This document shows, piece by piece, positions 6,890-33,148 of a DNA stretch of 64,000 bases. Under the pieces are notes generated by a model that saw only the letters and a list, made by a program, of their open reading frames with translations, was not told the DNA's origin and made no database searches. Position 1 is the stretch's first letter, and every line of letters begins with the position of its first letter. The translations under genes and the position numbers were made by a program. Location of the stretch: assembly GCA_030672305.1 (NCBI GenBank), contig DAOVGR010000064.1, positions 33,080-97,079 of the forward strand, written 5' to 3'. Source of the stretch: Thermoplasmatales archaeon. Its GTDB lineage: Archaea; Thermoplasmatota; E2; DHVEG-1.

Positions 6890-7561
6890 ATGCTAAAAAC
6901 TCCAGTTATTGTTTTAAATGTTAAAACCTATGCTGAAGCAACAGGAAATAAGTCAATAGAAATCGCTATGCTAATGGACAAAATATCTAAAGAATCTGGA
7001 GCTAGTATGGCAATTGCCGTACAACCAACAGATATTACAATATGTTCAAATAAAGTATCAATACCAATTTTTGCAGAACATATCGACCCAATTAAACCAG
7101 GGAGCCATACAGGTTGGATTCTACCAGAGGCAGTTAAAATAGCAGGAGCGGTTGGAACGCTTGTAAATCATAGTGAACATAGGTTAAAATTAGCTGATAT
7201 TGATGTTTGTATTAATCGAGCAAAAGAACTCGACCTCGATCATATTATATGTTCAAACAATGTTGCAACATCAAGAGCAATTGCAGCATTTTCACCTAAT
7301 TTTTTAGCTGTTGAACCACCAGAACTTATTGGAGGAGATATATCAGTTACAACGGCAAATCCAGATATTATAAGTAAAAGTGTTGAAGTTGTTAAAAATA
7401 TTGATAATAAAGTAAAAATATTATGTGGTGCTGGAGTAAAAAACGGAAAAGACGTATCCAAAGCAATTGAGCTTGGCGCAGATGGTGTTCTTTTAGCCAG
7501 TGGAGTAGTAAAAGCAGAAGATAAAGAAAGTGTCATCCGTAACCTAGCATCCGGATTATAG
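6890..7561 (+). CDS. tpiA: Triosephosphate isomerase, archaeal type
   Basis: LNVKTY, NHSE, AVEPPELIG, CGAG, GVLLASG; ATG at 6890 after GGAG. Confidence 0.97.
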   Translation: MLKTPVIVLNVKTYAEATGNKSIEIAMLMDKISKESGASMAIAVQPTDITICSNKVSIPIFAEHIDPIKPGSHTGWILPEAVKIAGAVGTLVNHSEHRLKLADIDVCINRAKELDLDHIICSNNVATSRAIAAFSPNFLAVEPPELIGGDISVTTANPDIISKSVEVVKNIDNKVKILCGAGVKNGKDVSKAIELGADGVLLASGVVKAEDKESVIRNLASGL

Positions 7562-11853: not shown

Positions 11854-11959
11854 TGCCGTCATTTTAACACAGCTGAAGATCCTGCAGAAGACTATTTTGC
11901 CGTCAAAAAACTCCACGTGGAGTCAGGATCTGTGCGATATCACTTTCAAAATGACGACA
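11854..11959 (-). repeat. Phased palindromic site C, inverted copy of site A
   Basis: TGCCGTCA at 11854 and 11898, TGACGACA at 11952; 73/106 identical to 17565-17670 in reverse complement. Confidence 0.9.
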
Positions 11960-12908: not shown

Positions 12909-13004
12909 TGCCGTCAAAACAAACCATGATCAAGATCTGGCCATGCTGGAAATGACGGCAAAATAGCATGGTCCAGGATCTAGATCTATATCAAAATGAC
13001 GGCA
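12909..13004. repeat. Phased palindromic site B
   Basis: TGCCGTCA 12909, TGACGGCA 12953 and 12997 (44-bp steps); 46/52 identical to part of site D in reverse complement. Confidence 0.9.
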
Positions 13005-13089: not shown

Positions 13090-13790
13090 TAAAGTATTAG
13101 AGATCAATTAATCAATATACTATAATGATATCACACTCTATGGTAGGATACACAATCAGAAAAATAATACAAAACAAGTAATTACTTCAAGAGATTAGTA
13201 TTGAATAAACAAGAAAATTATAAGAAATATTGAGAAACTCATTCATCAGATCCTGGTCCTTCTTATCTAGATGATAGAAGATTAGAGATCAATAAATCTA
13301 TAGTATTAATGATATCTCTCTCTATGGTAGGATACACTAAGAAAGATTCATAATAAAATACAAGATTATATCTAGAAAAATTCTAATAAAATTGAAAGAT
13401 TAATGCAAGACTATGCAAGATTTCCATTTTCTTTTATATCAATCGATGGCTCATCCAGAACTCTATATTGACCATGGCCTAATCTAGATGATAAAGATTA
13501 GAGATCAATTAAGTCATTACAATTACTTATAATATATTTCCCATCCCATTAGTTGTTTTAAAAGGTTAGTTAGTTATCACTTCTTCATTATTCTGAAGAA
13601 ATTCACCATGAATATCACATACACTTTGATAACTTGCCTTGTATTTTTTAAATAGAAGATTAGAGATAAGAAAGTCAATACAATTAATTAATAATATCTT
13701 TCCCATCCCATTAGTTGTTTTATAAAAACATACATACATACCAAATCAACCATTACTCCTGTAAAAATTAAAAAATAAATGTACACAATG
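13090..13790 (-). repeat. Non-coding tandem array of element 1, four units
   Basis: ATTAGAG-anchored repeats at 13096, 13281, 13497, 13659; homologous to 26700-27720. Confidence 0.9.
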
Positions 13791-14473: not shown

Positions 14474-14815
14474 TTATATTCTCCTGAAAGAATTTGAAAT
14501 AGGATTAAAATTTACAACATAGACCTCTGGATTTGAAGAAGACGGATTTTTAGGGTTGATTTCATCCCATTTCCTAAAAAATTCCTCCCGGGTATAACCT
14601 CCCTCACACCAAGCATCCTTGTCAGAAATATCAAGTAAAAATTCTTTATGAACACTAATTATGAAGAGCTCTGCGAAAAACTCTTTAGAAAGCATCTTTG
14701 TTTTTGCTTTATGAATAGATCCAGGTTTACAACGTGGTTTTTTCCAGATACATCTAGTCTGGATTTTAAGGCCCTGTTGAATCAGTCCTATATGCTCAGG
14801 TTTAAACAAAATCAT
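14474..14815 (-). CDS. ASCH domain protein
   Basis: LFKPEH...GLKIQTR ASCH motif, DAWCEGG; 90/113 identical to 26321-26665. Confidence 0.85.
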   Translation of the reverse strand: MILFKPEHIGLIQQGLKIQTRCIWKKPRCKPGSIHKAKTKMLSKEFFAELFIISVHKEFLLDISDKDAWCEGGYTREEFFRKWDEINPKNPSSSNPEVYVVNFNPISNSFRRI

Positions 14816-17564: not shown

Positions 17565-17670
17565 TGCCGTCAAATTGAAGTTGATATCGACTGGATCCTG
17601 CGATGGTCCATGTTGTTTTGACGGCAAAAAGGTGTTCTGCAGGATCTCAACGTGCATCAAAATGACGGCA
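17565..17670 (+). repeat. Phased palindromic site A, just downstream of integrase 1
   Basis: TGCCGTCA 17565, TGACGGCA 17619 and 17663 (54 and 44 bp steps). Confidence 0.9.
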
Positions 17671-17716
17671 AAATAAATTCTAGTAAATTATCTCAAATTA
17701 ATAAAATTACAGAAAA

Positions 17717-18982
17717 TCATTTAGAATTCAACTTATTTTTGATTTTTTCTTGTTCTACTTGCATTTCCAATAATTTAAGCAAGTGTTCTTTTTGATTCAT
17801 CAAAAATTCCATTTTTCCCATCTTTTCCTGCAATTCTTTTATCTGTATATCTTTTTCATCAAGCCGTTTCGTCGTCTCTGTTGATGTATCAGATTCAAAG
17901 ATTAATAAACAACTGGCATGTGTATCATATTCAGTTTTCAATTTGGTCTCCATAACTTTATTCTCAAATTTATATATGTTATCTAAAAATGTAGTGTGAC
18001 CTCCCATGTAGTTTATGAATTCTTCATTTGTCCGGTCAAACATTAAATTTGTAAACCAGAAACGACGGATACTGTGAACATTATACATATATCTGGGGTA
18101 TTGTAATTTTGGATTGTTATCTTTTTTATTGTACGGGTGTCCTGCTTTTTCGAGTAGATTCTCCCACATTCTTCGAGCCGTAACATAATCAAAAGGAAAT
18201 ATCCTTTTTTCTAATTGAATAATTTCTTCTTTTGTAAGTTCCTCCCCATCTTTAGAAATAATCCAATTATTATAAACAATACCGTTTGATTCTGCAACCT
18301 TCTTCTTGGTTAAAGTATAACCCATTTTTTCAAATTGATTTCTTACAAATACACTGGTTTTATAGCGTTTCTGTAGCATCCGCTTTCTTTCAGGTATCCA
18401 AAGCTCTAATAGTTCTTTGGCTTCGGTTGTAAAAAAGGTATATCTTGGTATCTCAAATTTTGCTTTATCTGTTAGCATTACCTTTTTTTCGTTTAAATCA
18501 ATGTCATCAAATGTCAGGTTCAATGCTTCATCAATTCTTAGCCCTGTTGATGCTAATAATACAAATAAAGACCGTGATTTTACACCTGTAGCATAGCTTA
18601 AAATCTTTTTAAGGTCATTACCTGTCGGAGTTTCTTTCTTCGTCAAAGGTCTACTTCCTCCTTTTTTCAGGTTATTTCTGATTTGTAGATCTTCCCATGT
18701 TAACTCAGGTATATCGATTCTATTTCTTGTCAAGAACTTTTTTAGTATTGATAACATTGTTTTCTGGGTTTTCTTAGGTTTATCCTCTATCTTTTTAGCA
18801 TATTCAAATAAGAGGTTCTGTATTTCTTCTAGTGGTAGTTGTACTAATTCATCTGGTTCTTTTTTAATCCTTTCAAAAAAAGCTTTCAAATATACTCTTA
18901 CAGTATCTCGTGAATCTTTATTTTTGTAGTATTTCACAAGATATGATTCTATTATTTTTGGATGCCAATCATGGGTTCTCAT
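17717..18982 (-). CDS. Tyrosine recombinase/integrase of element 1
   Basis: STGLRIDE, HSIRRFW, MGGH and downstream Tyr; C-terminal coiled coil. Confidence 0.93.
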   Translation of the reverse strand: MRTHDWHPKIIESYLVKYYKNKDSRDTVRVYLKAFFERIKKEPDELVQLPLEEIQNLLFEYAKKIEDKPKKTQKTMLSILKKFLTRNRIDIPELTWEDLQIRNNLKKGGSRPLTKKETPTGNDLKKILSYATGVKSRSLFVLLASTGLRIDEALNLTFDDIDLNEKKVMLTDKAKFEIPRYTFFTTEAKELLELWIPERKRMLQKRYKTSVFVRNQFEKMGYTLTKKKVAESNGIVYNNWIISKDGEELTKEEIIQLEKRIFPFDYVTARRMWENLLEKAGHPYNKKDNNPKLQYPRYMYNVHSIRRFWFTNLMFDRTNEEFINYMGGHTTFLDNIYKFENKVMETKLKTEYDTHASCLLIFESDTSTETTKRLDEKDIQIKELQEKMGKMEFLMNQKEHLLKLLEMQVEQEKIKNKLNSK

Positions 18983-19865: not shown

Positions 19866-19965
19866 TGAAAGGCCTTAATTACAAATTGTTTTTAACCATT
19901 TCTCCCAAAAATATTATAAATACCCCATCCTTACACTACAATTCTCACATCTGGTGTTATGGTCT

Positions 19966-20331
19966 ATGGCAAAGAAATATACTAAGACAAATCCTGCTCT
20001 TACAGCATTAATTCACGAGCTGAAGAAGCAGGCAAATGAAAATGATGCACCTATTTGGAAAGATATAGCGTTAAGACTAGAGAAATCTTCGAAGAACTGG
20101 TCAGAGGTTAATCTTGATAGAATAGATAAGTATACAGGTGAAAAAGAAATAGCTCTTATACCAGGCAAGGTATTATCCAATGGAAATCTGTCTAAAAAAG
20201 TTTCAATTGCTGCTTGGTCATTTTCTGAGAAATCTCAAGAAAAAATTAAAAATGCTGGCGGCAAATATATGACAATTCAAGAACTTATTAAAAGCAATCC
20301 AAAAGGTAAAGATATTAGAATATTGGGTTAA
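19966..20331 (+). CDS. rpl18e: 50S ribosomal protein L18e
   Basis: KTNP...APIWKDIA...VNL...IPGKVL; likely start ATG 19966. Confidence 0.96.
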   Translation: MAKKYTKTNPALTALIHELKKQANENDAPIWKDIALRLEKSSKNWSEVNLDRIDKYTGEKEIALIPGKVLSNGNLSKKVSIAAWSFSEKSQEKIKNAGGKYMTIQELIKSNPKGKDIRILG

Positions 20332-20333
20332 TT

Positions 20334-20747
20334 ATGACAACTATTATTGATGCAAGTGGGGCAATACTTGGTAGACTCAGTACATTTACTGCTAAACGTT
20401 TGCTAAACGGAGAAGAAATTGCTGTAGTTAATTCTGAAAAAGCAATTATATCTGGTAAAAAATCATCAATTAAAAATCGCTATAAACAGAAAAGAGAAGT
20501 CGGGACATACCGTAAGGGACCATTTTATCCAAGGATGCCTGATATGATTGTAAAAAGGACAATTAGAGGTATGATTCCTTATCAAACACCTCATGGCAGA
20601 ACTGCCTTTAAAAGGTTGAAATGTTATATAGGTGTTCCAAAGGAATTTGAAGGGGGAAAATTTGAAAGTATTAAGGCAGCTGAAAAACAACCTATTGATT
20701 ATTTAACAATTAAAGAATTATCAAAATCATTAGGAGCAAAGATTTAA
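20334..20747 (+). CDS. rpl13: 50S ribosomal protein L13
   Basis: [12 protein letters not shown]...GPFYPRMPD...RGMIP. Confidence 0.97.
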
Positions 20748-21151
20748 TGGCTAAAAAGGTAATAAATACATCTGGAAAAAGAAAAACTGCTGTTGCAAGA
20801 GCAAACGTTCAAAAAGGAACTGGGCTTGTGAGAATTAACAGCAAACCTGTTGAGCTTTATGAGCCTGACATTGCTCGTTGGAAAATACTTGAGCCAATAA
20901 ATATCGCAAGTGATCATGTAAGTAAAGTAAACATTGATGTTAGTGTACAGGGAGGTGGTTTTATGAGTCAAGCAAATGCAGTTAGAACAGCTATTGCTAA
21001 AGGACTAGTAGAATTTACGGGGGACCCAAGTTTGAAAATTGCTTTTTTAGACCATGATAGAAGCTTACTTGTAAGTGATTCAAGAAGAAAAGAACCGAAA
21101 AAGCCTCTTGGACGTGGTGCAAGAAAAAAGAGGCAGAAGTCATATAGGTAA
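20747..21151 (+). CDS. rps9: 30S ribosomal protein S9
   Basis: [11 protein letters not shown]...GGGFMSQA...[11 protein letters not shown]. Confidence 0.98.
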
Positions 21152-21201: not shown

Positions 21202-22323
21202 TTGATAATTATGGATCCAATTGAGGAATTTTTAAAAAATAAAGGTAAGGTTACTCAAAAAAACTATAGGTGGGTTTTAAAACAATATTTCGATGATATT
21301 AAACAAGATCCAGAGGTTTATTTTCAAAGTAATAGGAATTTTAAAGATGATATTCAAAACTGGTGGAACATTCATAAAAGCGAAGTTCCAAAGACCAGGA
21401 ATACAAAACTTGCAATACTCAGAGGACTCTTTGAAGAATACTCAAAGATAATTAGTGATTTACCACCTAAGTATTTTAAGAAACTTAGAAAACAGCAAAA
21501 AGGATCCAAAAAAGCAACAACTGATCATATTTTGAAAAAAAATGAATTTAAAAAAATATTGGCACATGGAACTATCAAAGACCGCGCTTTTTTTCTTTTT
21601 TTAATAAGTTCAGGTTGCAGAGTTGGTGAAGTTTTACAATTAAAACTTACAGATGGATTTGTTAAACGATTGGAGAACAATCCACCACAAATAGAGATAT
21701 CTGGAAAATTCACTAAAACTGGAAATCCAAGAACTGTGTTTATCACACCAGAATCAAAGGAAAACCTTGAAGAATGGCTGAAAATCAGAAATGATTATAT
21801 TAGAACAGCAGTCAAAAAATGCAACAAAGAAAAAGGTGGAATATGCACAAAAGATCCAAATGATGATCGGGTGTTTCCATTCAGTTATGATGTTGCTTGG
21901 ACTTCCTGGAATAGGTTAGTAAAAAAAACTGGTCTTGGTGAAAGAGATGAAACAACCAATAATTACAAACTGCATATTCATTGTTTAAGAAAATTCTTTT
22001 TAAGTAAGTTGAAACTTGAAATTCCTGAAGTTGTTGCAGAGATACTTGCAGGTCATGAAGGATACTTGCAGGGAACATATGATAAATACTCATTAGAAAC
22101 ACAAGCAGAATTATACAAGAAGGGAATGAAACATCTTACTATCTTTGATACAACTTCAAGAGAACTTGAGGAGACAAACGAAGAAGTAAATAAGCTTAAA
22201 TATCAAATCGATAACAAGGACAAACAAATCAATGAAATGCAGGATATGATGCAAGAGATGAAAGCACAGATCCTGGAGCTTAGACTTGAGAAACTTGAAA
22301 AGATTAATGGATTAAAAAAGTGA
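21202..22323 (+). CDS. Tyrosine recombinase/integrase of element 2
   Basis: SSGCRVGE, KTG, HCLRKFF, LAGH...TY; likely start ATG 21211. Confidence 0.94.
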   Translation: MIIMDPIEEFLKNKGKVTQKNYRWVLKQYFDDIKQDPEVYFQSNRNFKDDIQNWWNIHKSEVPKTRNTKLAILRGLFEEYSKIISDLPPKYFKKLRKQQKGSKKATTDHILKKNEFKKILAHGTIKDRAFFLFLISSGCRVGEVLQLKLTDGFVKRLENNPPQIEISGKFTKTGNPRTVFITPESKENLEEWLKIRNDYIRTAVKKCNKEKGGICTKDPNDDRVFPFSYDVAWTSWNRLVKKTGLGERDETTNNYKLHIHCLRKFFLSKLKLEIPEVVAEILAGHEGYLQGTYDKYSLETQAELYKKGMKHLTIFDTTSRELEETNEEVNKLKYQIDNKDKQINEMQDMMQEMKAQILELRLEKLEKINGLKK

Positions 22324-22440
22324 TATCATTTCCAGCTGACCTGTTGGCCATTTTTGATATCATTTTTGCTGTGATATCGTCTGGATCCGGTGCTATTGTG
22401 ATATCAAAACAATGATCAGCTGGATCTACAAATGATATCA
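22321..22440 (+). repeat. Phased palindromic site E, overlapping the integrase stop codon
   Basis: TGATATCA at 22321, 22355, 22399, 22433 (34/44/34 steps); 22355-22440 is 64/86 identical to site F in reverse complement. Confidence 0.9.
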
Positions 22441-22458
22441 TTGGTTGATTTTAAATCC

Positions 22459-23562
22459 CTAATAATTATTCTGTAAACTATAGTTATCGCTATAAATATG
22501 AAATTTTGAATAAGCAATCTCTATTGGAATTGCAAGTTTTATAAACTCTTTATTGTCCCATCCCCACTGTATCAATTCCTTAATTTCACCTAATGATAAA
22601 TCATAATCTTTATAAAAAAAAGATTTACTCCAAATTCTACAAAATTCTTCAAGATATGAATCAACAGATTTCTTATCTTTTAAATTAAATAGTTTATTCA
22701 TAGCATCAGAAATATTTTTTCTAATTCTTATTTCTTGATTAATGTTAATTTCTTTTTTTAGAGGATAACCAAAAACAAAAAAGAATAAAGTTTTTGATGT
22801 ACAAATATCAGCACCCTCATATAAGTTTAAAGCAATATAATTAAAAAAAATACCATATAAATGATCCTTAATTTCACTTAATATATTTTTTATTTTACTG
22901 CTTTTAGTGTTTCTTTGTAAAATATCTATAAGCTTGTCTCGTTCTTCAAAAAATCTTTTTTCCTTAATTTTATATATTTCATCCAGAAATATATCAATTT
23001 TCTTTAAATTATTCATTACCAAATTTCGATCATTCTGATTAAAAATATTCTTAAATAAATCATCTGATAATCCATAAATTATATGTTTTTCTAAATCATC
23101 TTTGCCTTGAAAAGCTTTTATTTTGTCTGATGGAAAAAAATCAATAGATTCTTTATTCTGATTTTTTAAACTCTCTTTATATGCAATATCATTTATAAAG
23201 TATTTAACTCCTTTATCATGGCCCTTACCATGTCCCTTTTTATGTATTAAATCTAGATCTTCTTCTCCCAATAGCTTTAGATAATATTTTAATTGTCCCC
23301 GATTCTTAATAATCCCTCTTTTAATAACATTATTTTTTTCTAATGACTCTAATCTTTTTCCAAAAAAGGTTTTCATTCGCGTTATATTCCGTTTCAATTC
23401 TGGATCATCTTTTATTTGTTTATTTGATGCATATTCAATTTGAAGTGCATATCTGATAAATCTAGGTGGTAATCCTTCTTCTTTGTATATACTCAAAAGA
23501 TTAAGGATACTTTTTGTAATTTTATTTTCAAATGCATCTTCAAATGTAATTGCTTTTTTTAT
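22459..23562 (-). CDS. Hypothetical protein, possible N-terminal winged helix, transcribed divergently from the core operon
   Basis: Track ORF extends in frame to a probable ATA start at 23562 behind AAGGAG. Confidence 0.6.
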   Translation of the reverse strand: MKKAITFEDAFENKITKSILNLLSIYKEEGLPPRFIRYALQIEYASNKQIKDDPELKRNITRMKTFFGKRLESLEKNNVIKRGIIKNRGQLKYYLKLLGEEDLDLIHKKGHGKGHDKGVKYFINDIAYKESLKNQNKESIDFFPSDKIKAFQGKDDLEKHIIYGLSDDLFKNIFNQNDRNLVMNNLKKIDIFLDEIYKIKEKRFFEERDKLIDILQRNTKSSKIKNILSEIKDHLYGIFFNYIALNLYEGADICTSKTLFFFVFGYPLKKEININQEIRIRKNISDAMNKLFNLKDKKSVDSYLEEFCRIWSKSFFYKDYDLSLGEIKELIQWGWDNKEFIKLAIPIEIAYSKFHIYSDNYSLQNNY

Positions 23563-23653
23563 GGTTATCTCTCCTTAGTTGTGGAATTTTAAATGATACA
23601 AATCACACAAATGATATAAAATAATCATTATTTAATCTTAGTGGAACTTATTT

Positions 23654-23806
23654 ATGAAAAATGATAAAATAACATCAATAGCGCTCAGTAAAAACGAACA
23701 AAATCTTATCGATTCCTATAGGAAGAAATATGGGTTGTCTAGATCTGCATGTATTCGCTTAATTCTGAATGATTTTTTTATTAAAAATCAGGGAGTAACA
23801 CAATGA
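23654..23806 (+). CDS. RHH-like small regulator (not in track)
   Basis: ITSIALSKNEQNLIDSYRKKYGLSRSACIRLIL. Confidence 0.7.
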   Translation: MKNDKITSIALSKNEQNLIDSYRKKYGLSRSACIRLILNDFFIKNQGVTQ

Positions 23807-23952
23807 TCTCTAATGAACTTCTTGATAAATATCCAAGAGTTCGTAAGTTTCTAAGAAAACACCCGGAGATGAATCTAGATTCAGCATTAGTTTATACAGA
23901 AAATAAACTTAAGGAATCAAGTAAAGCCGATTCCCCTATTTTGAGAAGATAA
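23803..23952 (+). CDS. Small hypothetical protein (not in track)
   Basis: 49 aa, ATGA-coupled to the upstream gene, GGGAG SD. Confidence 0.55.
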   Translation: MISNELLDKYPRVRKFLRKHPEMNLDSALVYTENKLKESSKADSPILRR

Positions 23953-24049
23953 ACCACTCTTCTCAAAGTAGATCTTAAATATAATTTCAGTAGGAGGAAG
24001 TCAAATTGATGGGATATAATAAGATAAATAAGGTGAGGAGAGGTCTAGG

Positions 24050-24286
24050 ATGCACCAAAAAGATCTAATTCCTTTTAATGGTTTATTTGTTGCTATTGGG
24101 ATCTCATGTTATTCTAGAACAGCGCCTTTCTTTTTTTATGGAGAATTATTAGAAATTAATGAAGCAAATATTCTTCTAAAGTTGGATAAAAATTCAGGAT
24201 TAAAATCCATAAGAATCGCAGAAATTGTTGATATCCATTTGGATCCGAAATACAATAACATAAACAGGAGGAAAAACAGGCATTGA
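24050..24286 (+). CDS. Sm/LSm-like small protein
   Basis: FYGELLEINEANILLK...IRIAEIVDI; paralog of 17046-17288. Confidence 0.55.
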   Translation: MHQKDLIPFNGLFVAIGISCYSRTAPFFFYGELLEINEANILLKLDKNSGLKSIRIAEIVDIHLDPKYNNINRRKNRH

Positions 24287-24531
24287 TCATATTTATTATT
24301 ACTCAAAGTGAAAGTGATTTTTCCGATATTTACAATTCTATTGGTGCTGTTCGCAATAAACTTAAAATTACAAAAGCTTGTGAGTTAACATTGAAATCTC
24401 CAGTTACAAAAAAGAAGATAAAAAAAACGGTAAAACTAGTTGGTATATTGTATAAAATAATTGACGGTGAAATGGATACAATTTTTAGAACAACTCAAAG
24501 ATTGGAGAATCGACACCGAGGGAAACAATGA
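24283..24531 (+). CDS. Hypothetical protein
   Basis: Overlap-coupled on both sides. Confidence 0.55.
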   Translation: MIIFIITQSESDFSDIYNSIGAVRNKLKITKACELTLKSPVTKKKIKKTVKLVGILYKIIDGEMDTIFRTTQRLENRHRGKQ

Positions 24532-25901
24532 CTTATCAAGTCTCAGAACCTGTAAAAAATGACAAAGGAGAATTATGTTGGTTAATTGATAAGGGAAATA
24601 AACCAGTATCTACAGTTTCAAAAGATAAATCGATAAAACAGATAATAAAACAGAATAATCCAATCGATTACAAACAAGTATTTGAATTAAAACCAGAAGG
24701 ATTATGGCAATGTCGAAAATGTGGAGCGCAAATGCAAAGCAGTCCAAATCCACCTTTAGAATGTTACAAAGAACAAGGTGGTTGTGATAGATCTACAAAT
24801 TTTGAAATAGTAACAAAAACAATAAATACTGATTTATGGAAATTACCAAATTGGAATGACATCCCACTAGATGATATAGATATTCAAGGATTATTTGTAG
24901 ATATAAAAAACTTGATGAAACAATGCTTGATTTTTGTAGAAGATATACACTATACAATACTTACATTATGGATTATAAGCACATGGAAATTAGAATCATG
25001 GAATACTGTAGGTTTCCCAACATTTTTAGGAATGGTAAGCAGTGGTAAATCAAAATGCCTAGACTTCATAAATGAAATAGGATACCGAATGATAAACAGT
25101 AGTGGAATAACATTTCCAGCAATAGTAAGAGCATCGCACTATCATAATGCTGGAATATTAATGGATGAAGTCCAAAATAGATTAAATCCTAAAGATGAAT
25201 CAGGACGAGAATATATTAATTTCATAAAACCAAGTTATAGACGTGGAAATAAATATACAGTAGCTGACAAAGAAGATCAAGAAAACCTACTTAGTTATAG
25301 AAATTTTGGATTCAAAGCATTTGCAGGTGAAAGAGGTTTTGATCTAGGTTTAATGGATCGAACAATACTTTTTGAAATGGAACAGGATTACCCAGAGGTT
25401 ACTAATTTTAAAGAAATAGAAACAGATTTTGACATTATGAGAACACGATTGCTAAATTATAGATATAAAACACAAGAACCAGAATCATTGGATACTAGGA
25501 TATTTAAAAACAGTAGAACACATGAAATATTTGAAAGTATAATAGCAACAGGAAAACACATAGGAACAGTTACAGATGATATAATTGATTATGCAAAAAA
25601 ATGTGAAATTGAAAAAGAGGAAGAATTACAAGATACAATTGAATGGAATATATTAGAAATAATTAAAAATAAGGAATGCAACGAAACATTAGACGATGCA
25701 CCAACAGAAACACAGTATGGGGATATAGTAACAGCATTAGGATGGGAACCTGGAAGAAAAAGCTCACAATCATTAGGATATATTATTACAAAAAAATTCA
25801 GACTAATAACTAAAAGAAAAACAAGTGGGACTGTTATCCTTTTGACCAATCCTAAAAACGAAAGGAAGTTAAAATATCTTTTTAAGAGGTATAAATTATG
25901 A
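24528..25901 (+). CDS. Putative replication protein: Zn finger, P-loop NTPase, C-terminal HTH-like region
   Basis: CRKC...CYKEQGGC; GMVSSGKS Walker A; ILMDE Walker B. Confidence 0.65.
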   Translation: MTYQVSEPVKNDKGELCWLIDKGNKPVSTVSKDKSIKQIIKQNNPIDYKQVFELKPEGLWQCRKCGAQMQSSPNPPLECYKEQGGCDRSTNFEIVTKTINTDLWKLPNWNDIPLDDIDIQGLFVDIKNLMKQCLIFVEDIHYTILTLWIISTWKLESWNTVGFPTFLGMVSSGKSKCLDFINEIGYRMINSSGITFPAIVRASHYHNAGILMDEVQNRLNPKDESGREYINFIKPSYRRGNKYTVADKEDQENLLSYRNFGFKAFAGERGFDLGLMDRTILFEMEQDYPEVTNFKEIETDFDIMRTRLLNYRYKTQEPESLDTRIFKNSRTHEIFESIIATGKHIGTVTDDIIDYAKKCEIEKEEELQDTIEWNILEIIKNKECNETLDDAPTETQYGDIVTALGWEPGRKSSQSLGYIITKKFRLITKRKTSGTVILLTNPKNERKLKYLFKRYKL

Positions 25902-25904
25902 ATT

Positions 25905-26152
25905 ATGAATACTTCTATGAATACTTTATGAATACTTTTATGAATACTTTTCTCCGAGAAATGAATACTATGTATACTTTGAGTGTAAATATACCCTTTT
26001 TTATTAAAATAAATAGGTTGTATACAACTATATTACTTATTATAATAGACAGACGTGAGTGTGTGTGTATTGTCATAAAGTATTCATTGTATTCATTAAC
26101 AGATATGAAGTATTCATGGAAGTATTCATTAACTATCCATTTGACTATTCAT
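25905..26152. repeat. Convergent 10-bp iterons flanking an AT-rich spacer, putative origin of element 2
   Basis: ATGAATACTT at 25905, 25917, 25928, 25940 (variants 25961, 25970); AAGTATTCAT at 26078, 26108, 26120 (variants 26087, 26143). Confidence 0.75.
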
Positions 26153-26169
26153 TTTTTGGAGATTGTTGA

Positions 26170-26319
26170 ATGATCTCTGCAAGTACAAAAATTCAACTAT
26201 TGAAAAACAGGATATCTAGACTTGAAAATGAGATTCATAAGAGACAGATTGAAATTGATAATTGTAAGGAGCAACTTGAACGTTTAGATAATAGAATAAA
26301 TTCAGAGGTGAAAGTCTAA
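26170..26319 (+). CDS. Small coiled-coil protein (not in track)
   Basis: 49 aa, heptad pattern; its end carries the GAGGTGA SD for the ASCH gene. Confidence 0.55.
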   Translation: MISASTKIQLLKNRISRLENEIHKRQIEIDNCKEQLERLDNRINSEVKV

Positions 26320-26320
26320 A

Positions 26321-26665
26321 TTGCTTCTTTTCAAACCTGAGCATATAAAACTGATTCAACAAGGTCTTAAAACTCAGACTAGACGTATCTGGAAAAAACC
26401 TCATTGTAAACCTGGATCTGTTCATAAAGCTAAGACTATGATGCTTTCAAAGGATTATTATGCTGAGCTTTTCATAATCAGTATTCATAAAGAACATTTG
26501 CTTGATATTTCAGATAAGGATGCTTGGTGTGAAGGAGGTTACACCCGGGAGGAATTTCTAAACAAATGGGATGATATCAATCCTAGATTTCCTTCTTCTA
26601 CAAATCCAGAGGTCTATGTTGTGCCTTTTAATCCTATTGTGAAATCTTTCAGGATTTTAGATTAA
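26321..26665 (+). CDS. ASCH domain protein
   Basis: GLKTQTRR ASCH motif; TTG start. Confidence 0.87.
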   Translation: MLLFKPEHIKLIQQGLKTQTRRIWKKPHCKPGSVHKAKTMMLSKDYYAELFIISIHKEHLLDISDKDAWCEGGYTREEFLNKWDDINPRFPSSTNPEVYVVPFNPIVKSFRILD

Positions 26666-26699
26666 CTATAATTAAATTTTACATTATTTTACATGAATT

Positions 26700-27720
26700 T
26701 GACGTTAGTATACTATTTTTTTCTAGGAGTAGTTGACAGTATTGTAATGTTTTGATGGTGCTGTGTCCACCTAGGGATGGGGATATATAATATATTGTAT
26801 AGATTTATTGATTCTCTAATCTTCTAATATCTTACTTTATTAGGTGTATAGAATAGATTCTTTTAGTATCCTATAGGTTATATCTAAAGAAAGTTAAAGC
26901 TGTTTAAAGTTGGTATACTGAAATCTCTAAGAAGAAACTTAAAGTAATGCAATGTATCAAAAGTTCACTGTCCACCATAGAGAGAGATATCATTATAGTA
27001 TATTGATTAATTGATCTCTAATCTTCTATCTATAAAAAACATGGGACTTCATACAGTTATGTTAGAGATCTTCATTCACATTTTCTTCAAGAAAATGAAT
27101 GACTTGTATGTATGTCTTAGAAATGTTTCACCTAGGGATGGGTATAATTTATTATTATTGATTTATTGATCTCTAATCTTCTATCTATAAAATTCATGAT
27201 AAGTTATCAGTATGTATGTAATAGTCATGGAGAATTTCTTCAGGAAAATCAATAATTAATAACTAACTAATCTATTATGTTTTACCTAGGGATGGGGATA
27301 TATAATATTGTTATTGATTTATACTCTAGTCTTATGATAATTGATGGTAATTGATATTGTGGTTATAGCTGGTATACTGATTTTTCCTAGGAAAAATTGA
27401 CAATATTGTACTATTTTGATATTATGGTGTCCCACCTTCGAGAGAGATATCATTATAGTATATTGATTTATATAATCTCTAACTTTGTTATGCAATGTTA
27501 CAAGGATGTTATAGAAATATTTTAAAAATTTCTAGAGAAGATGTTGTATAACCCATTCAATGTTATATGCAATGTCCACCATAGAGAGAGATATCATTAT
27601 AGTATATTGATTAATTGATCTCTAATCTTCTAACTAACTAACTATATATGTTTCACCTAGAGATAGAGTATAATTTATTATTATTGATTTATTGAATCTC
27701 AAATCTTCTAGATGATAAGG
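26700..27720 (+). repeat. Non-coding tandem array of element 2, seven units
   Basis: CTCTAAT-type anchors at 26814, 27016, 27171, 27324, 27477, 27620, 27698; each ~45 bp after a CCACC/TCACC/TACC motif. Confidence 0.92.
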
Positions 27721-27841
27721 TAGATATCGTCACTAGTGACGATTTAAGAGTCTAGGTAATATTCCATAGATTTTTTTTTAAAGGTTGATTATCATCCATG
27801 GATCCAATCGGTTTTTGTATTTGTTTTTCTTATTATAGAAA

Positions 27842-27980
27842 TGCCGTCAAAAAAGAAGATATCAAAAAATGGTCCAGTAAATAATGACGGCAAAATTGAG
27901 TTCGAACCAGCTGGACCTGATCTAGTTTTGCCGTCATTTCCTGGATGGCCCGATCTTGATCATGTATAGTTTTGACGGCA
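27842..27980. repeat. Phased palindromic site D
   Basis: TGCCGTCA 27842, TGACGGCA 27885, TGCCGTCA 27929, TGACGGCA 27973 (43/44/44 steps). Confidence 0.9.
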
Positions 27981-28035
27981 ATATTTAAGATTAAAAGAGA
28001 ATGAATAAATTTTATATTACAGATTTAAAAGGAAT

Positions 28036-28890
28036 TTAGTATGGAGTACTAGGATGTGGAATTACTCCGATAACATATAAAATTGAAAGGATGACTGCAA
28101 TGAGAACAATGATAGTTTTTTCATGATCTGAAATTCTATGACTGAATTCTCCAATCTTTTCTTTAAAAGTTTTAGTTTTTAAGACTCCATTTGTACCTAT
28201 AAATTCATTAAATAATTTCATATTTTCTTTAAGGATTTTACCAAGTAAAATATAATCAATACTATCCGTTTTAAAGCATTCACTTATTTTATAATACACA
28301 TTATTGACATCATTATTGTTGCAATAGATATTTAAATTTTCAAGAAAAACTACAAGATCATAAAGGGTTTTATAAATGAATTTTGCTCTATGATATCTAT
28401 AATCAGTATAGGACCTTATTGATGATGGATTAAGTCTTTTTTGAGGTGCATTAAAACAATAAAGGAGTCTTGATAAATTATAATAAATATGCATTAAAAT
28501 TTCATATTTTCTATTTTCATCAGGTTCTTTAGATAACTCTTTAAAAAACTGATTAATTATGATATATTCATTATATTTGTTATAGCGTATATACAACCTT
28601 TCATAGATTATAACACAGAGTGAAATAATTAATAAAATAAAACCAGAATAGATAAATCCAACAGTGACAATGATCATCAATAATAATTCAATTAAATTAT
28701 CAACTATTAAATTTCCAGAACCAAATAAAAAAAGGAAAAACACACCCAATACTAAAAAAACACTGGACAAGATAATAAGTCGCATTCCCCAAATATCTAG
28801 TTTTATGATTCTATTACCTATTTTTTCATAATTTTGGATCGTGATTTCTTCAGAATTTTTAGAAATTTTTTTTTGATTTGTTTTTTTCAA
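28036..28890 (-). CDS. Hypothetical membrane protein (cargo)
   Basis: Two N-terminal and one C-terminal TM helices; TTG start after GGGGGA. Confidence 0.7.
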   Translation of the reverse strand: MKKTNQKKISKNSEEITIQNYEKIGNRIIKLDIWGMRLIILSSVFLVLGVFFLFLFGSGNLIVDNLIELLLMIIVTVGFIYSGFILLIISLCVIIYERLYIRYNKYNEYIIINQFFKELSKEPDENRKYEILMHIYYNLSRLLYCFNAPQKRLNPSSIRSYTDYRYHRAKFIYKTLYDLVVFLENLNIYCNNNDVNNVYYKISECFKTDSIDYILLGKILKENMKLFNEFIGTNGVLKTKTFKEKIGEFSHRISDHEKTIIVLIAVILSILYVIGVIPHPSTPY

Positions 28891-29145
28891 ATAATCCCCC
28901 TGCTATATTTTGAACTTTTAATTGACTCTTAAATGTTTCTAAAAACAGGATATGTATAAGGAATTAAGAAAATTACGTAATAAAAATTTGTAACCCTAGG
29001 ATAGTTTTTACATTTGATGACTTTTTCAGAGTATCATTGTTTTTCTATAATTTTTTTATTTTTTTCTTCTAAAGGTTCTCCTGGTTCAAAATATTTAAAT
29101 AGTAGTCTACTAATAGACTATTGATAGACTATATTATTAGGACAG

Positions 29146-29310
29146 ATGGCAACTATGACAGCAAAAAAAACATCAGGCCGATTAATACTCAAAGAAATCA
29201 AATTCGAACAGATCTACCAACGAACAGTTAGCAGATGCAATGAAACAAGTGGTAAAGTCACAGTACCAAGTAAACTTATAGGTAAACGTGTCTATGTTGT
29301 AGTCGAATAA
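29146..29310 (+). CDS. DUF2080-like small protein (not in track)
   Basis: MATMTAKKTSGRLILKEIKFEQIYQRTVSRCNETSGKVTVPSKLIGKRVYVVVE. Confidence 0.75.
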   Translation: MATMTAKKTSGRLILKEIKFEQIYQRTVSRCNETSGKVTVPSKLIGKRVYVVVE

Positions 29311-29393
29311 ATCCTAGTATTATTACTGTTATAGTTCTGTCTTTTTTTGGTGAGGTGGGGTGGAAATATTAATTTCATTGGAGTTGTAGAAAG

Positions 29394-31016
29394 ATGAAGA
29401 GATTATTGATAATTGGTGTAATTATAGCTGTTTTCATACTCATAGGAAGTCTATTCTATACAGGTATAATCCCAGGGCTTGGAGTCCTGGATAACGATAC
29501 CAATACAATATCAAAAACCCATATATGCATCAAAGGAAATGGAAGAAGTGAACTACTGGATAAAAAAGGATACATCCTGAGTTATAAAAATGATGAATTC
29601 AGTGAAAAAATAAGCATCATAGGTCAACTGCAAAAAACTGGTTCTGATTGTGCTCATTGTGGTTTTTTGTATGAAAAAGTAAGATATCTTGTTTATCTGA
29701 AACTGGATTCTTCGCATGAGTATGAACTTATGAGTTCACCAGGAGATACAAAGAGATATTTTAGTAATCCTAACCCTGGTGAGATGTATAAACCTGCTCT
29801 TGGATGCTGGAAGGACAATGCAGGGAACCCCAGAGATGATGGATATCAAAGACCTTATGATTTTTACTTGGTTGGAAATGATTATTCAAATGGCGCAATC
29901 AAAGCGGTAATCCAATGTAAACTAGACTTGAGCATGTGGGATGATAAAGGTTCAAAATGGTACACCATGGCCATTGATGAAGCATTCCTATACAGCGGAT
30001 ATGGTGGACTACATCTCCCCAGGGGACTTGAAGATGAACTAGATAAACCATATAGCACATTTGAAGTAGGACAAACAGTCAAAATAGGAGTAGAAACCGC
30101 AAAAGGTGGACAAACCGGAGATAACCAAAACTGGCGCGTAACACTCAATAAACCCTATTCTGGAAACATTGACAGTCCTGAAGATGGAACAGTGGTGGTT
30201 TCTCAGAATTTCCCGGATGATTGTGATCCTAGTAATACATTTTTTGAATTTACTGTTACTGATGAAATGGCCAGGCAATCAATGAGTAATTCTTATCCGT
30301 ATACTGTTAGGATTTGGAATACACTTCTCCCCAAGGGTTCACTTCAGATTGATTTTGTTGATTTTGTTGCTGGTTGTCCCAGTGATGTTGATTTTGTAGG
30401 ATCAATAAAGGTCAAAGTTGGTGAAACTACAACTGTTGATCTTTCTGCAACTGTAAGCAGTGGATCCAGTGCAAGTATTGATTATTTCAGAGTTGCAGTG
30501 ATCTATGGAACCAATGATGCATTGCTTCCAGGGGATCATAGCAGTAGTCTTTGGATTATTCATACAACACCAGTTGGAAATGATGATAGCAAAGCATGTG
30601 GTGTTCCACAGACTATCCAGTTTAAAGCAGATAGGGAAGAATTTGTAACTGTTCATGCAAAAGCATTTGATACTGATGGAAGGGGATCTAAAACAACCCG
30701 GACATTTACAATGAAGATATGGGGTGAATCTGGTGAACCACCAGATGAAACCATTGCAGATGAAACAGGTGATGCTGATTATGGTGGTGGACATACAAGT
30801 GGATGGCATCCTTGGGATCCCAGTGAAGGAACCTGGGAACAAGGACTCCCAATAAAAATTGATACAACAGGAGTTATCATTGCTATAGTTATCCTGGCTA
30901 TTTTTGCATTGATTGCCTTACTTATTCCTAATCTGAATCAATATATCCGGTTCGCAATCATACTTGTTGGAGTTGCAATTGCAATCATCCAATATCTATT
31001 ATTCTTCATATCCTGA
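29394..31016 (+). CDS. 540-aa membrane-anchored surface protein
   Basis: N-terminal signal/anchor, beta-rich ectodomain with 8 Cys, acidic Gly-rich linker, two C-terminal TM helices. Confidence 0.75.
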   Translation: MKRLLIIGVIIAVFILIGSLFYTGIIPGLGVLDNDTNTISKTHICIKGNGRSELLDKKGYILSYKNDEFSEKISIIGQLQKTGSDCAHCGFLYEKVRYLVYLKLDSSHEYELMSSPGDTKRYFSNPNPGEMYKPALGCWKDNAGNPRDDGYQRPYDFYLVGNDYSNGAIKAVIQCKLDLSMWDDKGSKWYTMAIDEAFLYSGYGGLHLPRGLEDELDKPYSTFEVGQTVKIGVETAKGGQTGDNQNWRVTLNKPYSGNIDSPEDGTVVVSQNFPDDCDPSNTFFEFTVTDEMARQSMSNSYPYTVRIWNTLLPKGSLQIDFVDFVAGCPSDVDFVGSIKVKVGETTTVDLSATVSSGSSASIDYFRVAVIYGTNDALLPGDHSSSLWIIHTTPVGNDDSKACGVPQTIQFKADREEFVTVHAKAFDTDGRGSKTTRTFTMKIWGESGEPPDETIADETGDADYGGGHTSGWHPWDPSEGTWEQGLPIKIDTTGVIIAIVILAIFALIALLIPNLNQYIRFAIILVGVAIAIIQYLLFFIS

Positions 31017-31122
31017 AATATTTAGACTTGCCAAAATATCTAGAAGAAGGGCTAATGGCAAGAGGTTAAACTATTCACCTTCATAATAGCCCTCTTCTCT
31101 CCTTAAAAAAAGAGGTAAAAAA

Positions 31123-31521
31123 ATGAATCTAACAGATCTAACTGATTTATGCTGTGGAATCACTTTTCCAATAATTGGAATAGTTGTTACAGTGTTTTTG
31201 CTGTATCTTAGAAAGAAAGGATATTCTTTCAATCTTAGAAGTCTATGGGATGATGATGATGCTGTAATGGTTATTTCCAGAGCTTTTGCAATTGGCGTTC
31301 CATTGATCCTGGTAACAATTTTTCATACTGCTAATGCTTTTGGGATTGGAATATGGGAACCACTTCTCAGTATAGCATTAGCATCAGCAATTATAATTTC
31401 TGGTGCTGTTATCGCTGTTCTTGGTCTAAAAGTAGGTTTTTATTATCCGATGATGCTGATTTTCATCATCTGGGTTCTATTGATCTATGTTTATCTTCAA
31501 TTTGAAGCTAACATAATATAA
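31123..31521 (+). CDS. Small four-TM membrane protein
   Basis: Hydrophobicity pattern; AGAGGT SD. Confidence 0.75.
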   Translation: MNLTDLTDLCCGITFPIIGIVVTVFLLYLRKKGYSFNLRSLWDDDDAVMVISRAFAIGVPLILVTIFHTANAFGIGIWEPLLSIALASAIIISGAVIAVLGLKVGFYYPMMLIFIIWVLLIYVYLQFEANII

Positions 31522-31544
31522 AAAAAATAATAAAAAAAAGAGTT

Positions 31545-31853
31545 TTAGATATCTATACCAAATTGATGCATCAACTGATACCCACGATTCTTGAAATAAC
31601 CCTTTTCTAAAATCTGATTGAATAATAAATCATCGATATTATCGTTTATTATTCCCAGGTAATCACAACCTTTGGAATCTTTTTCTGGTTCTCCCTTTTC
31701 ATCTGTAAGTTGATTTTTCAAAACTTTATCATAGATCTTCCAGGTAACAAGAACACCATCCACAAAAGTTAATTGATTCTCTTGATCATCTGCATAATAT
31801 CTTTCTGTGTATTCACTTAAACTTTCTTTTTTTTTCTTTTTCAGTTCTGTCAA
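31545..31853 (-). CDS. Hypothetical protein
   Basis: 102-aa ORF with GAGGTG SD. Confidence 0.6.
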   Translation of the reverse strand: MTELKKKKKESLSEYTERYYADDQENQLTFVDGVLVTWKIYDKVLKNQLTDEKGEPEKDSKGCDYLGIINDNIDDLLFNQILEKGYFKNRGYQLMHQFGIDI

Positions 31854-31869
31854 GATTCAACACCTCTTT

Positions 31870-32094
31870 TTAATCTATTAAGAAATACTGATTCATTTTG
31901 TCGAATTTATCTTCTTTTAATCTTCGGATCATACTTCGAAGAGTCTCTTTAAGTTTTTCTAAAGGATCTTTATCCTTTTTCCACGTGTCACTGATCTCAT
32001 AAAGGAACTCTAGCACATCTTCAGAGCTCATATTCTTTATTTCTTCTAAAGCTTCTATTTTGTCTTCATTTTCCATATGTTTCAATTCTCCCAA
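31870..32094 (-). CDS. Hypothetical acidic helical protein
   Basis: 74-aa ORF in operon with the previous gene. Confidence 0.55.
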   Translation of the reverse strand: MGELKHMENEDKIEALEEIKNMSSEDVLEFLYEISDTWKKDKDPLEKLKETLRSMIRRLKEDKFDKMNQYFLID

Positions 32095-32140
32095 TTTTTT
32101 AAATTCATATTATAAAACTACTATTTAAATCTGCGTAGAA

Positions 32141-32338
32141 ATGTTTAAGTATGCGCAAAAGTATTTTAAGACTATGCCTGATTTAAAGAATTCTATGGGA
32201 TCTAAACCATTGAATATCAGTCTACCAGAAGAACAAAGAGATGAACTTAAAAGATTAGCAGAAAAAGAGAATAGAGCTATCAGTCATCAAATAATTCATA
32301 TGATGAAATTTTATATCAAACATAAAGATAAGATTTAA
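32141..32338 (+). CDS. Arc/CopG-like ribbon-helix-helix regulator
   Basis: LNISLPEEQRDELKRLAEKENRAISHQII. Confidence 0.85.
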   Translation: MFKYAQKYFKTMPDLKNSMGSKPLNISLPEEQRDELKRLAEKENRAISHQIIHMMKFYIKHKDKI

Positions 32339-32355
32339 TGATGAAAAGGTAGTAT

Positions 32356-32441
32356 TGATATCATTGTTAGATCCAACTGATCAGTGTTTTGATATCACTT
32401 TGTTGCGGGATCCTGTGGATATCCAACCGTTTTTGATATCA
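32356..32441 (-). repeat. Phased palindromic site F, inverted copy of site E
   Basis: TGATATCA at 32356, 32390, 32434 (34/44 steps). Confidence 0.9.
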
Positions 32442-32449
32442 TGATTAAT

Positions 32450-33148
32450 TTATTTAGTATTCACACATGTAAATTTAATTACATTTGGTGCAAAATTAAT
32501 ATCTTTTTCTAAAATAGAAATAGCTTTATTTGCTTCCTTAGAAAAATCTTTGACACGGGTATAACAATTAATAATAAATTCAATACGAGAATGAGTTGCC
32601 AATTCACAAAACGTATCTTTTAAAATTACATTTTTAAATCTAATTGATTTAATTGCTTGATGAATTTGAAAATATTTTTCAAAAACTATTCCATCCTCTA
32701 AATTTAATTCAATTAATAAAAAAGTTATTTTTTCTCTTAAAGCCGGAACAATAACTCTTATCATATTCAAAGACAGTTCTGAAAGATAATTTGATAATTT
32801 TTCAATAGGATTTCCTTTTAAAAAATCATATATTTTTTCATATAAAAACTTATAAAAATTTTCAGTTTTTTTATCCTCTTCAATAAGCTTATTAAAAGAT
32901 TTAATAAGATAAGAATCTCTTTCAAATTTAGAATCAATTTCAGCTATTTTTTTTATTTTTTTCAATGATTTTTCTACTACATATGTAATTTTGTGTCTTA
33001 TTTGCTCTTGTGTATTACTTATAGTACTTTCACAAAAAAAACAATCATTTTTCTCCTTTTTTAATAAATTAGTTACAAAAGAATGATTCTTATCAAATTT
33101 ATTTAATAAAGGTATAATAAGACTATAATCCAAAGTATAATATGCCAA
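32450..33148 (-). CDS. Hypothetical protein, weak PIN-like N-terminus
   Basis: YTLDYSLIIPLL...DKNH resembles the first PIN strand and helix. Confidence 0.45.
   Translation of the reverse strand: MAYYTLDYSLIIPLLNKFDKNHSFVTNLLKKEKNDCFFCESTISNTQEQIRHKITYVVEKSLKKIKKIAEIDSKFERDSYLIKSFNKLIEEDKKTENFYKFLYEKIYDFLKGNPIEKLSNYLSELSLNMIRVIVPALREKITFLLIELNLEDGIVFEKYFQIHQAIKSIRFKNVILKDTFCELATHSRIEFIINCYTRVKDFSKEANKAISILEKDINFAPNVIKFTCVNTK

Follow-up and report, generated by a model that had tools for sequence, protein, structure and literature searches.

Several known recombination sites, such as Tn3 res, Tn4430 IRS, integron attC and Acinetobacter pdif, collect several recombinase or accessory motifs within 100-150 bp. 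The subsites of Tn3 res are spaced by 53 and 34 bp, close to the spacings described below. Sites of the pdif type bracket modules, often in inverted orientation, cassettes start at the site edge, and attC is an imperfect palindrome with conserved terminal boxes. Regular phasing is also familiar from binding arrays: Ss-LrpB has three boxes four helical turns apart, and sopC of the F plasmid consists of 43-bp repeats, each with a 16-bp dyad. Here, we describe short arrays of phased 8-bp boxes in a 64,000-nt stretch of an archaeal metagenome-assembled genome (MAG; Thermoplasmatales archaeon, 2.8 Mb, A+T-rich with about 30% G+C). This whole stretch is called the window, and all window coordinates refer to it. 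It contains two related plasmid-like integrated elements that flank the ribosomal protein genes L18e-L13-S9 (19954-21151) in mirror orientation. The main subject is an inverted pair of arrays in element 2, named E and F, whose box differs from the one used by the other arrays.

Array E (22321-22440, no strand assigned) holds four copies of the box TGATATCA at 22321, 22355, 22399 and 22433, in steps of 34/44/34 bp. The linkers between them carry the short motifs CAGCTG (22333), TGGCCA (22345), TGATATCG (22372), GGATCC (22383), TGATCA (22413), a further CAGCTG (22417) and GGATCT (22422), and the G+C content of the array is 38% compared to 28% in its flanks. Array F (32356-32441, likewise unstranded) pairs with E in inverted orientation. 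Its three TGATATCA boxes stand at 32356, 32390 and 32434 with steps of 34/44, and it has AGATCC (32369), TGATCA (32378), GGATCC (32408) and GGATATCC (32417) in its linkers. Positions 22355-22440 and 32356-32441 form an inverted repeat of 86 nt with 64/86 matches (74%), and the arms are 9,915 nt apart. The linkers alone, with the three common boxes removed, still match at 40 of 62 positions, where 25% is expected (binomial P = 5e-11), and the inverted alignment scores 84 compared to 52 for the direct one. The box itself is a perfect palindrome. It is present 11 times in the window against 3.1 expected, a count reached in 0 of 100 shuffles, and seven of these 11 words fall within E and F. No other phased TGATATCA cluster exists in the 2.8-Mb assembly. 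The first box, E1 (22321-22328), provides with its first three bases the TGA stop codon of the tyrosine recombinase gene Int2 (21202-22323, + strand). An earlier note on this DNA had described the inverted repeat with its identity and arm distance, the use of TGATATCA in E/F and of TGACGGCA elsewhere, and the overlap of the first E box with the integrase stop. Counting and locating both box sets in the window reproduces this description.

The second box, TGACGGCA, occurs 12 times in the window with 0.33 expected, always within one of four arrays, A-D. Array A in element 1 (17565-17670; orientation -++, steps 54/44) lies 47 nt after the stop of the integrase gene Int1 and is the alignment partner of E: the two align on the same strand via TGATATCG-N-CTGGATCC and GGATCT, the linker words already named in the earlier note, with about 10 bp missing per linker in E. 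Array C (11854-11959), also in element 1, is the inverted partner of A. Array B (12909-13004; -++, steps 44/44) of the same element is a long imperfect palindrome and is homologous to array D inside element 2 (27842-27980; four boxes in orientation -+-+, steps 43/44/44). The assembly contains six arrays, all of them within 11854-32441 of the window and in the two mobile elements. A and E stand in direct orientation around the L18e-L13-S9 genes. The statement that the E/F spacings are one helical turn shorter is correct in comparison with A and C, but not with the family described next, whose norm is 44/44, so that, among the spacings, the 34-bp step is what distinguishes E/F.

Arrays of the form TGACGGCA-N36-TGACGGCA are present in three other genomes of the family, G047 (on two contigs), G048 and G063; records of the relatives are titled 'Thermoplasmatota archaeon'. 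Overall, four Thermoplasmatota genomes, several metagenome contigs and contigs of Bacteroidota were found to carry arrays. The array-bearing metagenome or MAG contigs (L103, L104, L106, L108, L110, L113, L115, L116, L090 and L093) stem from several sites, and one array-bearing metagenome contig has 53% G+C. Three related contigs carry TGACGGCA boxes at 44 bp in L104 (4386-4481), L093 (1505-1600) and L090 (4499-4594). They encode Por_Secre_tail proteins of the type IX secretion system (T9SS) and are binned as Saprospiraceae, and the T9SS sorting-domain proteins identify them as Bacteroidota. From 60 boxes in 18 arrays, the consensus W4-TGACGG(C/T)A-W3 is obtained. The steps in these 18 arrays are 44/43 bp, occasionally 54 bp and never 34 bp, with one 23-bp step leading to a degenerate box. 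An array is 90-190 bp long and contains 3-5 identical 8-bp boxes within short A/T tracts. At 11 bp per turn, steps of 34/44/54 bp correspond to 3.1/4.0/4.9 turns, and each array presents three or more identical, dyad-like boxes.

A scan of 108 family genomes that was agnostic to the box (TGA-N3-CA at a 44-bp step) gave 32 matches. All eight matches with identical boxes are TGACGGCA, and no other TGA-N3-CA class at 44-bp steps is present in these genomes. Among the same 108 genomes, the TGATATCA 44-bp pattern matches only the genome of the window itself. The exact 42-nt E/F pattern has no match in metagenomes, and BLAST searches with E return only weak matches, all of them coding sequence. The assembly holds no alternative junction of E/F, and a related contig was not found in metagenomes. 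The family is one widespread box plus one private deviant, E/F, the only variant class found. Two groups of matches from IMG/VR were discarded: L080-L084, considered as relatives of E/F, are unrelated 14/20/22-bp iterons of phages of about 56 kb, and the TGACGGCA-N36-TGACGGCA matches are chance matches in coding DNA.

The linkers are unusual in composition. Their G+C content is 37-48% in almost all arrays and 66% in the array of the contig with 53% G+C, with 24-28% around E/F. Palindromic hexamers containing G/C number 55, compared to 18.9 +/- 4.1 for shuffled sequence; the highest of 1,000 shuffles has 33. GATC is found in every array and reaches 20 per kb in arrays versus 2.6 per kb in the genome (eight-fold), and CTGCAG or CAGCTG reaches 12.9 versus 0.37 per kb (35-fold). 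GATATC and GGWCC are further short linker palindromes, and GATATC recurs within a few bases of boxes in A, C, D, L046a, L106, L110, L103 and L113. Given this recurrence of GATATC as a secondary linker motif, the E/F box can be understood as that motif shifted into the box positions and not as a freely chosen sequence. As a whole, most arrays are imperfect palindromes. Folded as single-stranded DNA, five of the six window arrays have z values of -3.4 to -6.0 (E -4.8, B -6.0), while F reaches only -1.1. This hairpin folding owes much to the inverted boxes, and in B both linkers are complementary as well. The arrays match no RNA family in Rfam. Palindrome density was also tried as a genome-wide detector of arrays and rejected as too unspecific (332 clusters).

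The arrays are optional within otherwise homologous elements, and the same box and phasing recur across genera and on bacterial contigs. This is seen most directly at E. The gene p345 (22459-23496, - strand) converges on Int2, and the gap between the integrase and p345 genes measures 5, 31 and 10 nt in L045, L046 and L047, all three without an array, and 135 nt in the window, where it holds E. At F, the preceding gene encodes a ribbon-helix-helix (RHH) protein (32141-32338, + strand, stop 18 nt before F1). Its sole homologue found, in L117, is 78% identical. The homology ends at 32332, 24 nt before F1, and in L117 another gene and no array follow. On the far side of F, a gene for a protein of 232 amino acids with no assigned function (32450-33148, - strand) converges on the array with its stop 9 nt from F3.

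The arrays are also sharply bounded at their outer boxes and sited at synteny breaks or at the starts of single-gene insertions. The match between B and D extends to the outermost box (12909/27980), beyond which element 2 has a 1.1-kb insertion with one gene, p284 (28036-28890). A block that is 96% identical between L045 and L046 stops 7 nt before the L045 array (at 7068, with the box at 7075), and L046 has 760 extra nt at this point. The edge of E coincides with a break relative to the congeneric genome G085 at 22309-22321, the edge of F with a break relative to L117 at 32332-32356, and the Bacteroidota trio diverges about 20 nt past the last box. Stop codons are abutted by arrays at distances of 0-60 nt. 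In addition, inverted pairs of arrays enclose segments of 1.1 kb (L047 a/b), 4.3 kb (L046 a/b), 5.7 kb (A/C) and 9.9 kb (E/F); the L047 pair, with 65 nt at 97% identity, brackets one gene.

Flank exchange between two contexts occurs within one array. A 151-nt TGACGGCA array is 96.7% identical in L049 (4377-4527) and L116 (1169-1319), and the flanks of the two are unrelated. L108 (1670-1820) combines the left flank of L049 with the array and right flank of L116 (99.86%), and the switch lies in the first ~60 nt of the array. This 151-nt array is present in three flank combinations, left49/right49, left116/right116 and left49/right116. Such a pattern is expected of an attB x attP-like exchange or of plasmid integration via a shared repeat; an assembly join at the repeat could also produce it.

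The earlier note had proposed an element-specific recognition code, read by a cognate protein of each element. The common architecture stands, as does the common descent of E/F with the TGACGGCA sites. The assignment of one box to one element does not, with the TGACGGCA array D also in element 2. Nor does a cognate integrase or Rep protein reading the box, or a co-variation of box and integrase, agree with the data: box type is unrelated to integrases and Rep proteins across homologues, the nearest homologues of Int1 and Int2 have no arrays, and the same box stands beside four unrelated recombinases or none. In G085, homologues of Int2 (88%) and Int1 (80%) occupy the same loci; homology to the window stops at 22309 and 17826, and no arrays follow. 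Two integrase paralogues of the own genome (contigs C50 and C73) have the last ~115 nt of Int2 in common (80-87%), carry TAA at the codon where E1 gives TGA, and are not followed by arrays. No phased boxes were found within 1.5 kb of 30 integrase homologue loci. TGACGGCA boxes occur with Int1, in an element with a zinc-ribbon integrase (L046), between ordinary chromosomal genes, as with the peptidase and transporter genes of L049, and on Bacteroidota contigs; in L110, a large serine recombinase gene ends 14 nt before the array. The arrays accompany three unrelated Rep types, or none. We conclude that the code of the boxes is specific neither to an integrase nor to an element; small DNA-binding proteins are still candidate readers.

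G048 contains an element that carries Int2-like, p345, MCM-like Rep and DUF2080 genes and no array; a duplicated gene end of 410 nt forms its boundaries. These direct repeats (L047 1863-2274 and 12540-12947, 74% identical) duplicate the 3' end of a membrane-protein gene, bound an element of 10.3 kb and show the integration mode of the Int2-like integrase family. Element 2 is bounded by the word ATATAGGT at 21142 and 36462. The candidate role of the arrays as att sites of the integrases was rejected on these boundaries. The last ~115 nt of Int2 (22204-22319) encode a C-terminal coiled-coil. Their DNA matches the 3' ends of the two paralogues (C50:6612-6728 and C73:3726-3843) with 87% and 80% identity; the whole proteins of these paralogues are only ~40% identical to Int2. 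In G085, the 3' ends of Int1 and Int2 are also alike (75%). This similarity suggests gene conversion or a conserved cis element.

Our preferred reading, to which we assign a probability of about 0.4, is that the arrays are a phased platform for a putative DNA-binding protein and serve as junctions at which modules recombine or are inserted, and that E/F make up a second class of specificity. An invariant box in such strict phase points to a sequence-specific protein that acts cooperatively on one face of the helix. This putative protein, probably dimeric, would bind the phased boxes cooperatively and wrap the DNA. The sharp edges of the arrays, their optional presence and the exchange of flanks speak for a joining of DNA at or within them. 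Two array-protein complexes might pair, and an exchange in or beside the arrays could then join, insert or invert modules, either site-specifically or by homologous recombination through the 100-150 bp of common sequence. E and F would be inverted, diverged copies of a portable non-coding phased-box array, and E would have been inserted between Int2 and p345, which are directly adjacent in relatives. The concerted change of all seven boxes at two distant sites points to a reader of changed specificity or to a second sequence-specific reader, perhaps one that sees GATATC in ordinary arrays. The E/F class with its TGATATCA boxes and 34-bp steps would pair only with itself and not with the nearby arrays A-D.

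Several observations weigh against such a junction. No recombinase is consistently linked to the arrays, and their boxes are without the arm-spacer-arm layout of tyrosine-recombinase core sites. In an all-against-all BLAST of the open reading frames around 16 arrays, no protein family co-occurs with them. The pair in L103 looks direct rather than inverted. Edge breakpoints and flank exchange can also be explained by homologous recombination at 150-bp islands or by assembler joins. Orientation from Int to Rep is constant in 5/5 elements, with no sign of flipping, and the sites of elements 1 and 2 are oppositely oriented with respect to the Int and Rep arcs. Moreover, E/F is a single instance, so that the specificity class allows no covariation check. 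We regard as unlikely a more far-reaching version, in which the arrays are portable synapsis or recombination sites across domains and E/F is an orthogonal class, selected because A and E flank essential ribosomal genes. In this version, mosaic mobile elements of archaea and of some bacteria would use the arrays, together with a protein that reads the boxes, to exchange, insert and invert gene modules. With A and E direct around L18e-L13-S9, recombination between compatible sites would delete these essential genes.

The position of the arrays next to recombinase genes would also fit a model in which Int2 inverts E/F and Int1 inverts A/C, so that the 9.9-kb core flips, for example as an expression switch or in a copy-number amplification as in FLP/FRT. 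E/F and A/C are both inverted pairs, E touches the Int2 stop, A follows Int1 at 47 nt, the L110 array follows its serine recombinase gene at 14 nt, and the box has changed in concert in both partners. We consider this model improbable, given that the nearest homologues and paralogues of Int1 and Int2 are without arrays, that the same box is found with four unrelated recombinases or none, and that Int2-like elements integrate via a duplicated host-gene end, not via arrays. In addition, TGATATCA is a perfect palindrome without a 6-8-bp asymmetric spacer, no arm-spacer-arm unit is conserved, the enclosed lengths vary from 1.1 to 9.9 kb, and the Int-to-Rep orientation is constant in five elements. 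A role in replication, with the arrays as fork barriers, sites of Rep handcuffing or centromere-like partition sites bracketing the replication module, is very improbable. A-B and the L103 pair do flank Rep genes, and the 43/44-bp spacing of dyad boxes is reminiscent of F sopC. However, the Rep genes that accompany the arrays are of three unrelated types or are missing altogether, separate iterons adjoin Rep2 at 25905-26152, and no partition ATPase is present.

A role in transcription is a further alternative. The arrays could be operator or roadblock platforms, at which a small regulator (RHH, AbrB or similar) together with T-runs ends or insulates transcription between modules, with no role in recombination. 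Breakpoints at their edges would then be due only to homologous recombination at conserved islands. The abutment of arrays and stop codons at 0-60 nt, the location of E, D and F between convergent genes and the RHH genes directly upstream of F and of the Bacteroidota arrays fit this idea, and phasing in whole helical turns is typical of cooperative regulators such as Ss-LrpB and of F sopC. T4-T6 runs flank the boxes and are found in E and F on the strand of the upstream gene despite the inversion of the sites. We nevertheless find this explanation doubtful: co-variation with the arrays is seen for no regulator, the RHH proteins are unrelated apart from their fold, the homologue of RHH65, encoded by the gene before F, has no array, and the genes on either side of the L049 array diverge. 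A terminator would need neither an 8-bp box that is invariant across two domains nor palindrome-rich linkers or inverted pairing. Rather doubtful, too, is the explanation of the arrays as selfish, non-autonomous elements, of the miniature inverted-repeat transposable element (MITE) or repetitive extragenic palindrome (REP) type, that are moved by a transposase encoded elsewhere, with E and F as two functionless copies of one subfamily. It would account for discrete units with inverted terminal boxes, for near-identical copies in unrelated flanks, for imperfect palindromes and for the Int|p345 junction that is filled in element 2 and empty in relatives; about ten IS200/IS605 Y1 transposase genes are at hand in the genome. 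But the 2.8 Mb hold only six copies, all in two mobile elements, no target-site duplication is seen at the array edges in L049 and L116 or at those of E and F, none of the transposase genes was found linked to an array, and the flank combination of L108 requires recombination and not insertion alone.

With regard to the gene content, element 1 starts with Int1 (17717-18982, - strand) and runs leftwards, and element 2 runs rightwards from Int2 and parts S9 from rpoN (36476). Int1 and Int2 have 27% identity and match Phage_integrase at the general family level only. In both elements, the integrase and an array (A or E) are followed by the replication module and an ASCH gene, and then by ~150-bp non-coding units, array (B/D), DUF2080, membrane or surface genes, array (C/F) and cargo. 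For p345 and the other array neighbours, Pfam, PHROGs and PADLOC give no match that assigns a function.

Some of the neighbouring genes recur with the arrays in part. ASCH genes are found in five array contexts (14474-14815, 26321-26665, L046 6649-7002, L047 15574-15927 and L104 5272-5709); in L046 and L047 they belong to an RHH / zinc-ribbon / ASCH operon, and in L104 the gene lies 0.8 kb downstream of the array. The association of ASCH genes with arrays is suggestive but weak evidence; it was not found at other arrays. RHH genes precede F, and RHH or coiled-coil genes precede each Bacteroidota array; they are mutually unrelated beyond the fold and were not found at other arrays. Neither an ASCH profile nor an RHH alignment identified a protein that consistently accompanies the arrays, and an N-terminal zinc finger of the Rep proteins is not universal among array contexts.

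Further repeats in this genome are distinct from the arrays. Dense ATGAATACTT iterons in inverted blocks follow directly 3' of the Rep2 stop (25905-26152), apart from the box arrays, and are likely the replication origin. The ~150-bp non-coding units are themselves arranged in arrays at 26700-27720 and 13090-13790, common to both elements, with copies up to 97% identical and no Rfam family match. On contig C56 of the own assembly (17712-17830), outside the window, GTGCGACAC boxes stand in steps of 44/33/33 without palindrome-rich linkers and are probably iterons of a different element. The IS200/IS605-type Y1 transposase genes of the assembly are spread over contigs C27, C56, C77, C68, C40, C22, C83, C9 and C75. 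At the far end of element 1 (8247-9962), a GHKL-ATPase protein of 571 amino acids has a weak match to PADLOC TmtA models and may be defence cargo.

Should the arrays prove to be recombination junctions, the mosaicism of poorly known archaeal plasmid-like elements would be explained, and the arrays would represent a small, sequence-defined system with two apparent specificities. Even in a conservative view, it is unusual that an 8-bp box, a fixed 44-bp phasing and 'polylinker-like' spacers are kept from Thermoplasmatota to Bacteroidota. The conserved box and phasing point to a DNA-binding protein still to be found. For annotation, the arrays should not be labelled as attachment or recognition sites of the neighbouring integrases. 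Literature searches on the motif and on mobile elements of Thermoplasmatota returned no description of the motif or of the arrays. The array family and its E/F variant appear new, whereas the kind of object, a palindromic protein-binding array or a multi-box recombination site, is familiar.

Among known systems, the arrays resemble REP and bacterial interspersed mosaic elements (BIME), enterobacterial repetitive intergenic consensus (ERIC) sequences and Correia elements in being short, non-coding, imperfect palindromes that lie intergenically near gene ends, and in forming discrete units in unrelated flanks with conserved short boxes and variable linkers. In contrast to these, the arrays number only six and are confined to mobile elements instead of being dispersed chromosome-wide, their boxes are strictly phased at 44 bp with the same box in archaea and Bacteroidota, and neither a target duplication nor a linked REP-associated tyrosine transposase (RAYT) or other transposase was found for them. 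Compared to res, IRS, attC and pdif, the arrays have no consistent recombinase or IntI-type integrase, they contain 3-5 equal boxes and no single R/L pair or arm-spacer-arm core, their modules hold several genes, and strand exchange at them is hypothetical. The 44-bp steps of the boxes, the inverted pairs and the multi-gene modules likewise set them apart from integrons. With FLP/FRT of the yeast 2-micron plasmid, E/F have in common two inverted sites in a small replicon that encodes a tyrosine recombinase, but the sites do not co-vary with the recombinase, lack an FRT-like core and are of variable geometry. Unlike Ss-LrpB and sopC, the arrays have no identified cognate protein gene beside them, their linkers are unrepeated and palindrome-rich, and they are dispersed, often as inverted pairs. 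It is still with these two systems that the arrays share identical, dyad-like boxes at four helical turns, an arrangement that implies cooperative binding on one face of the DNA and wrapping.

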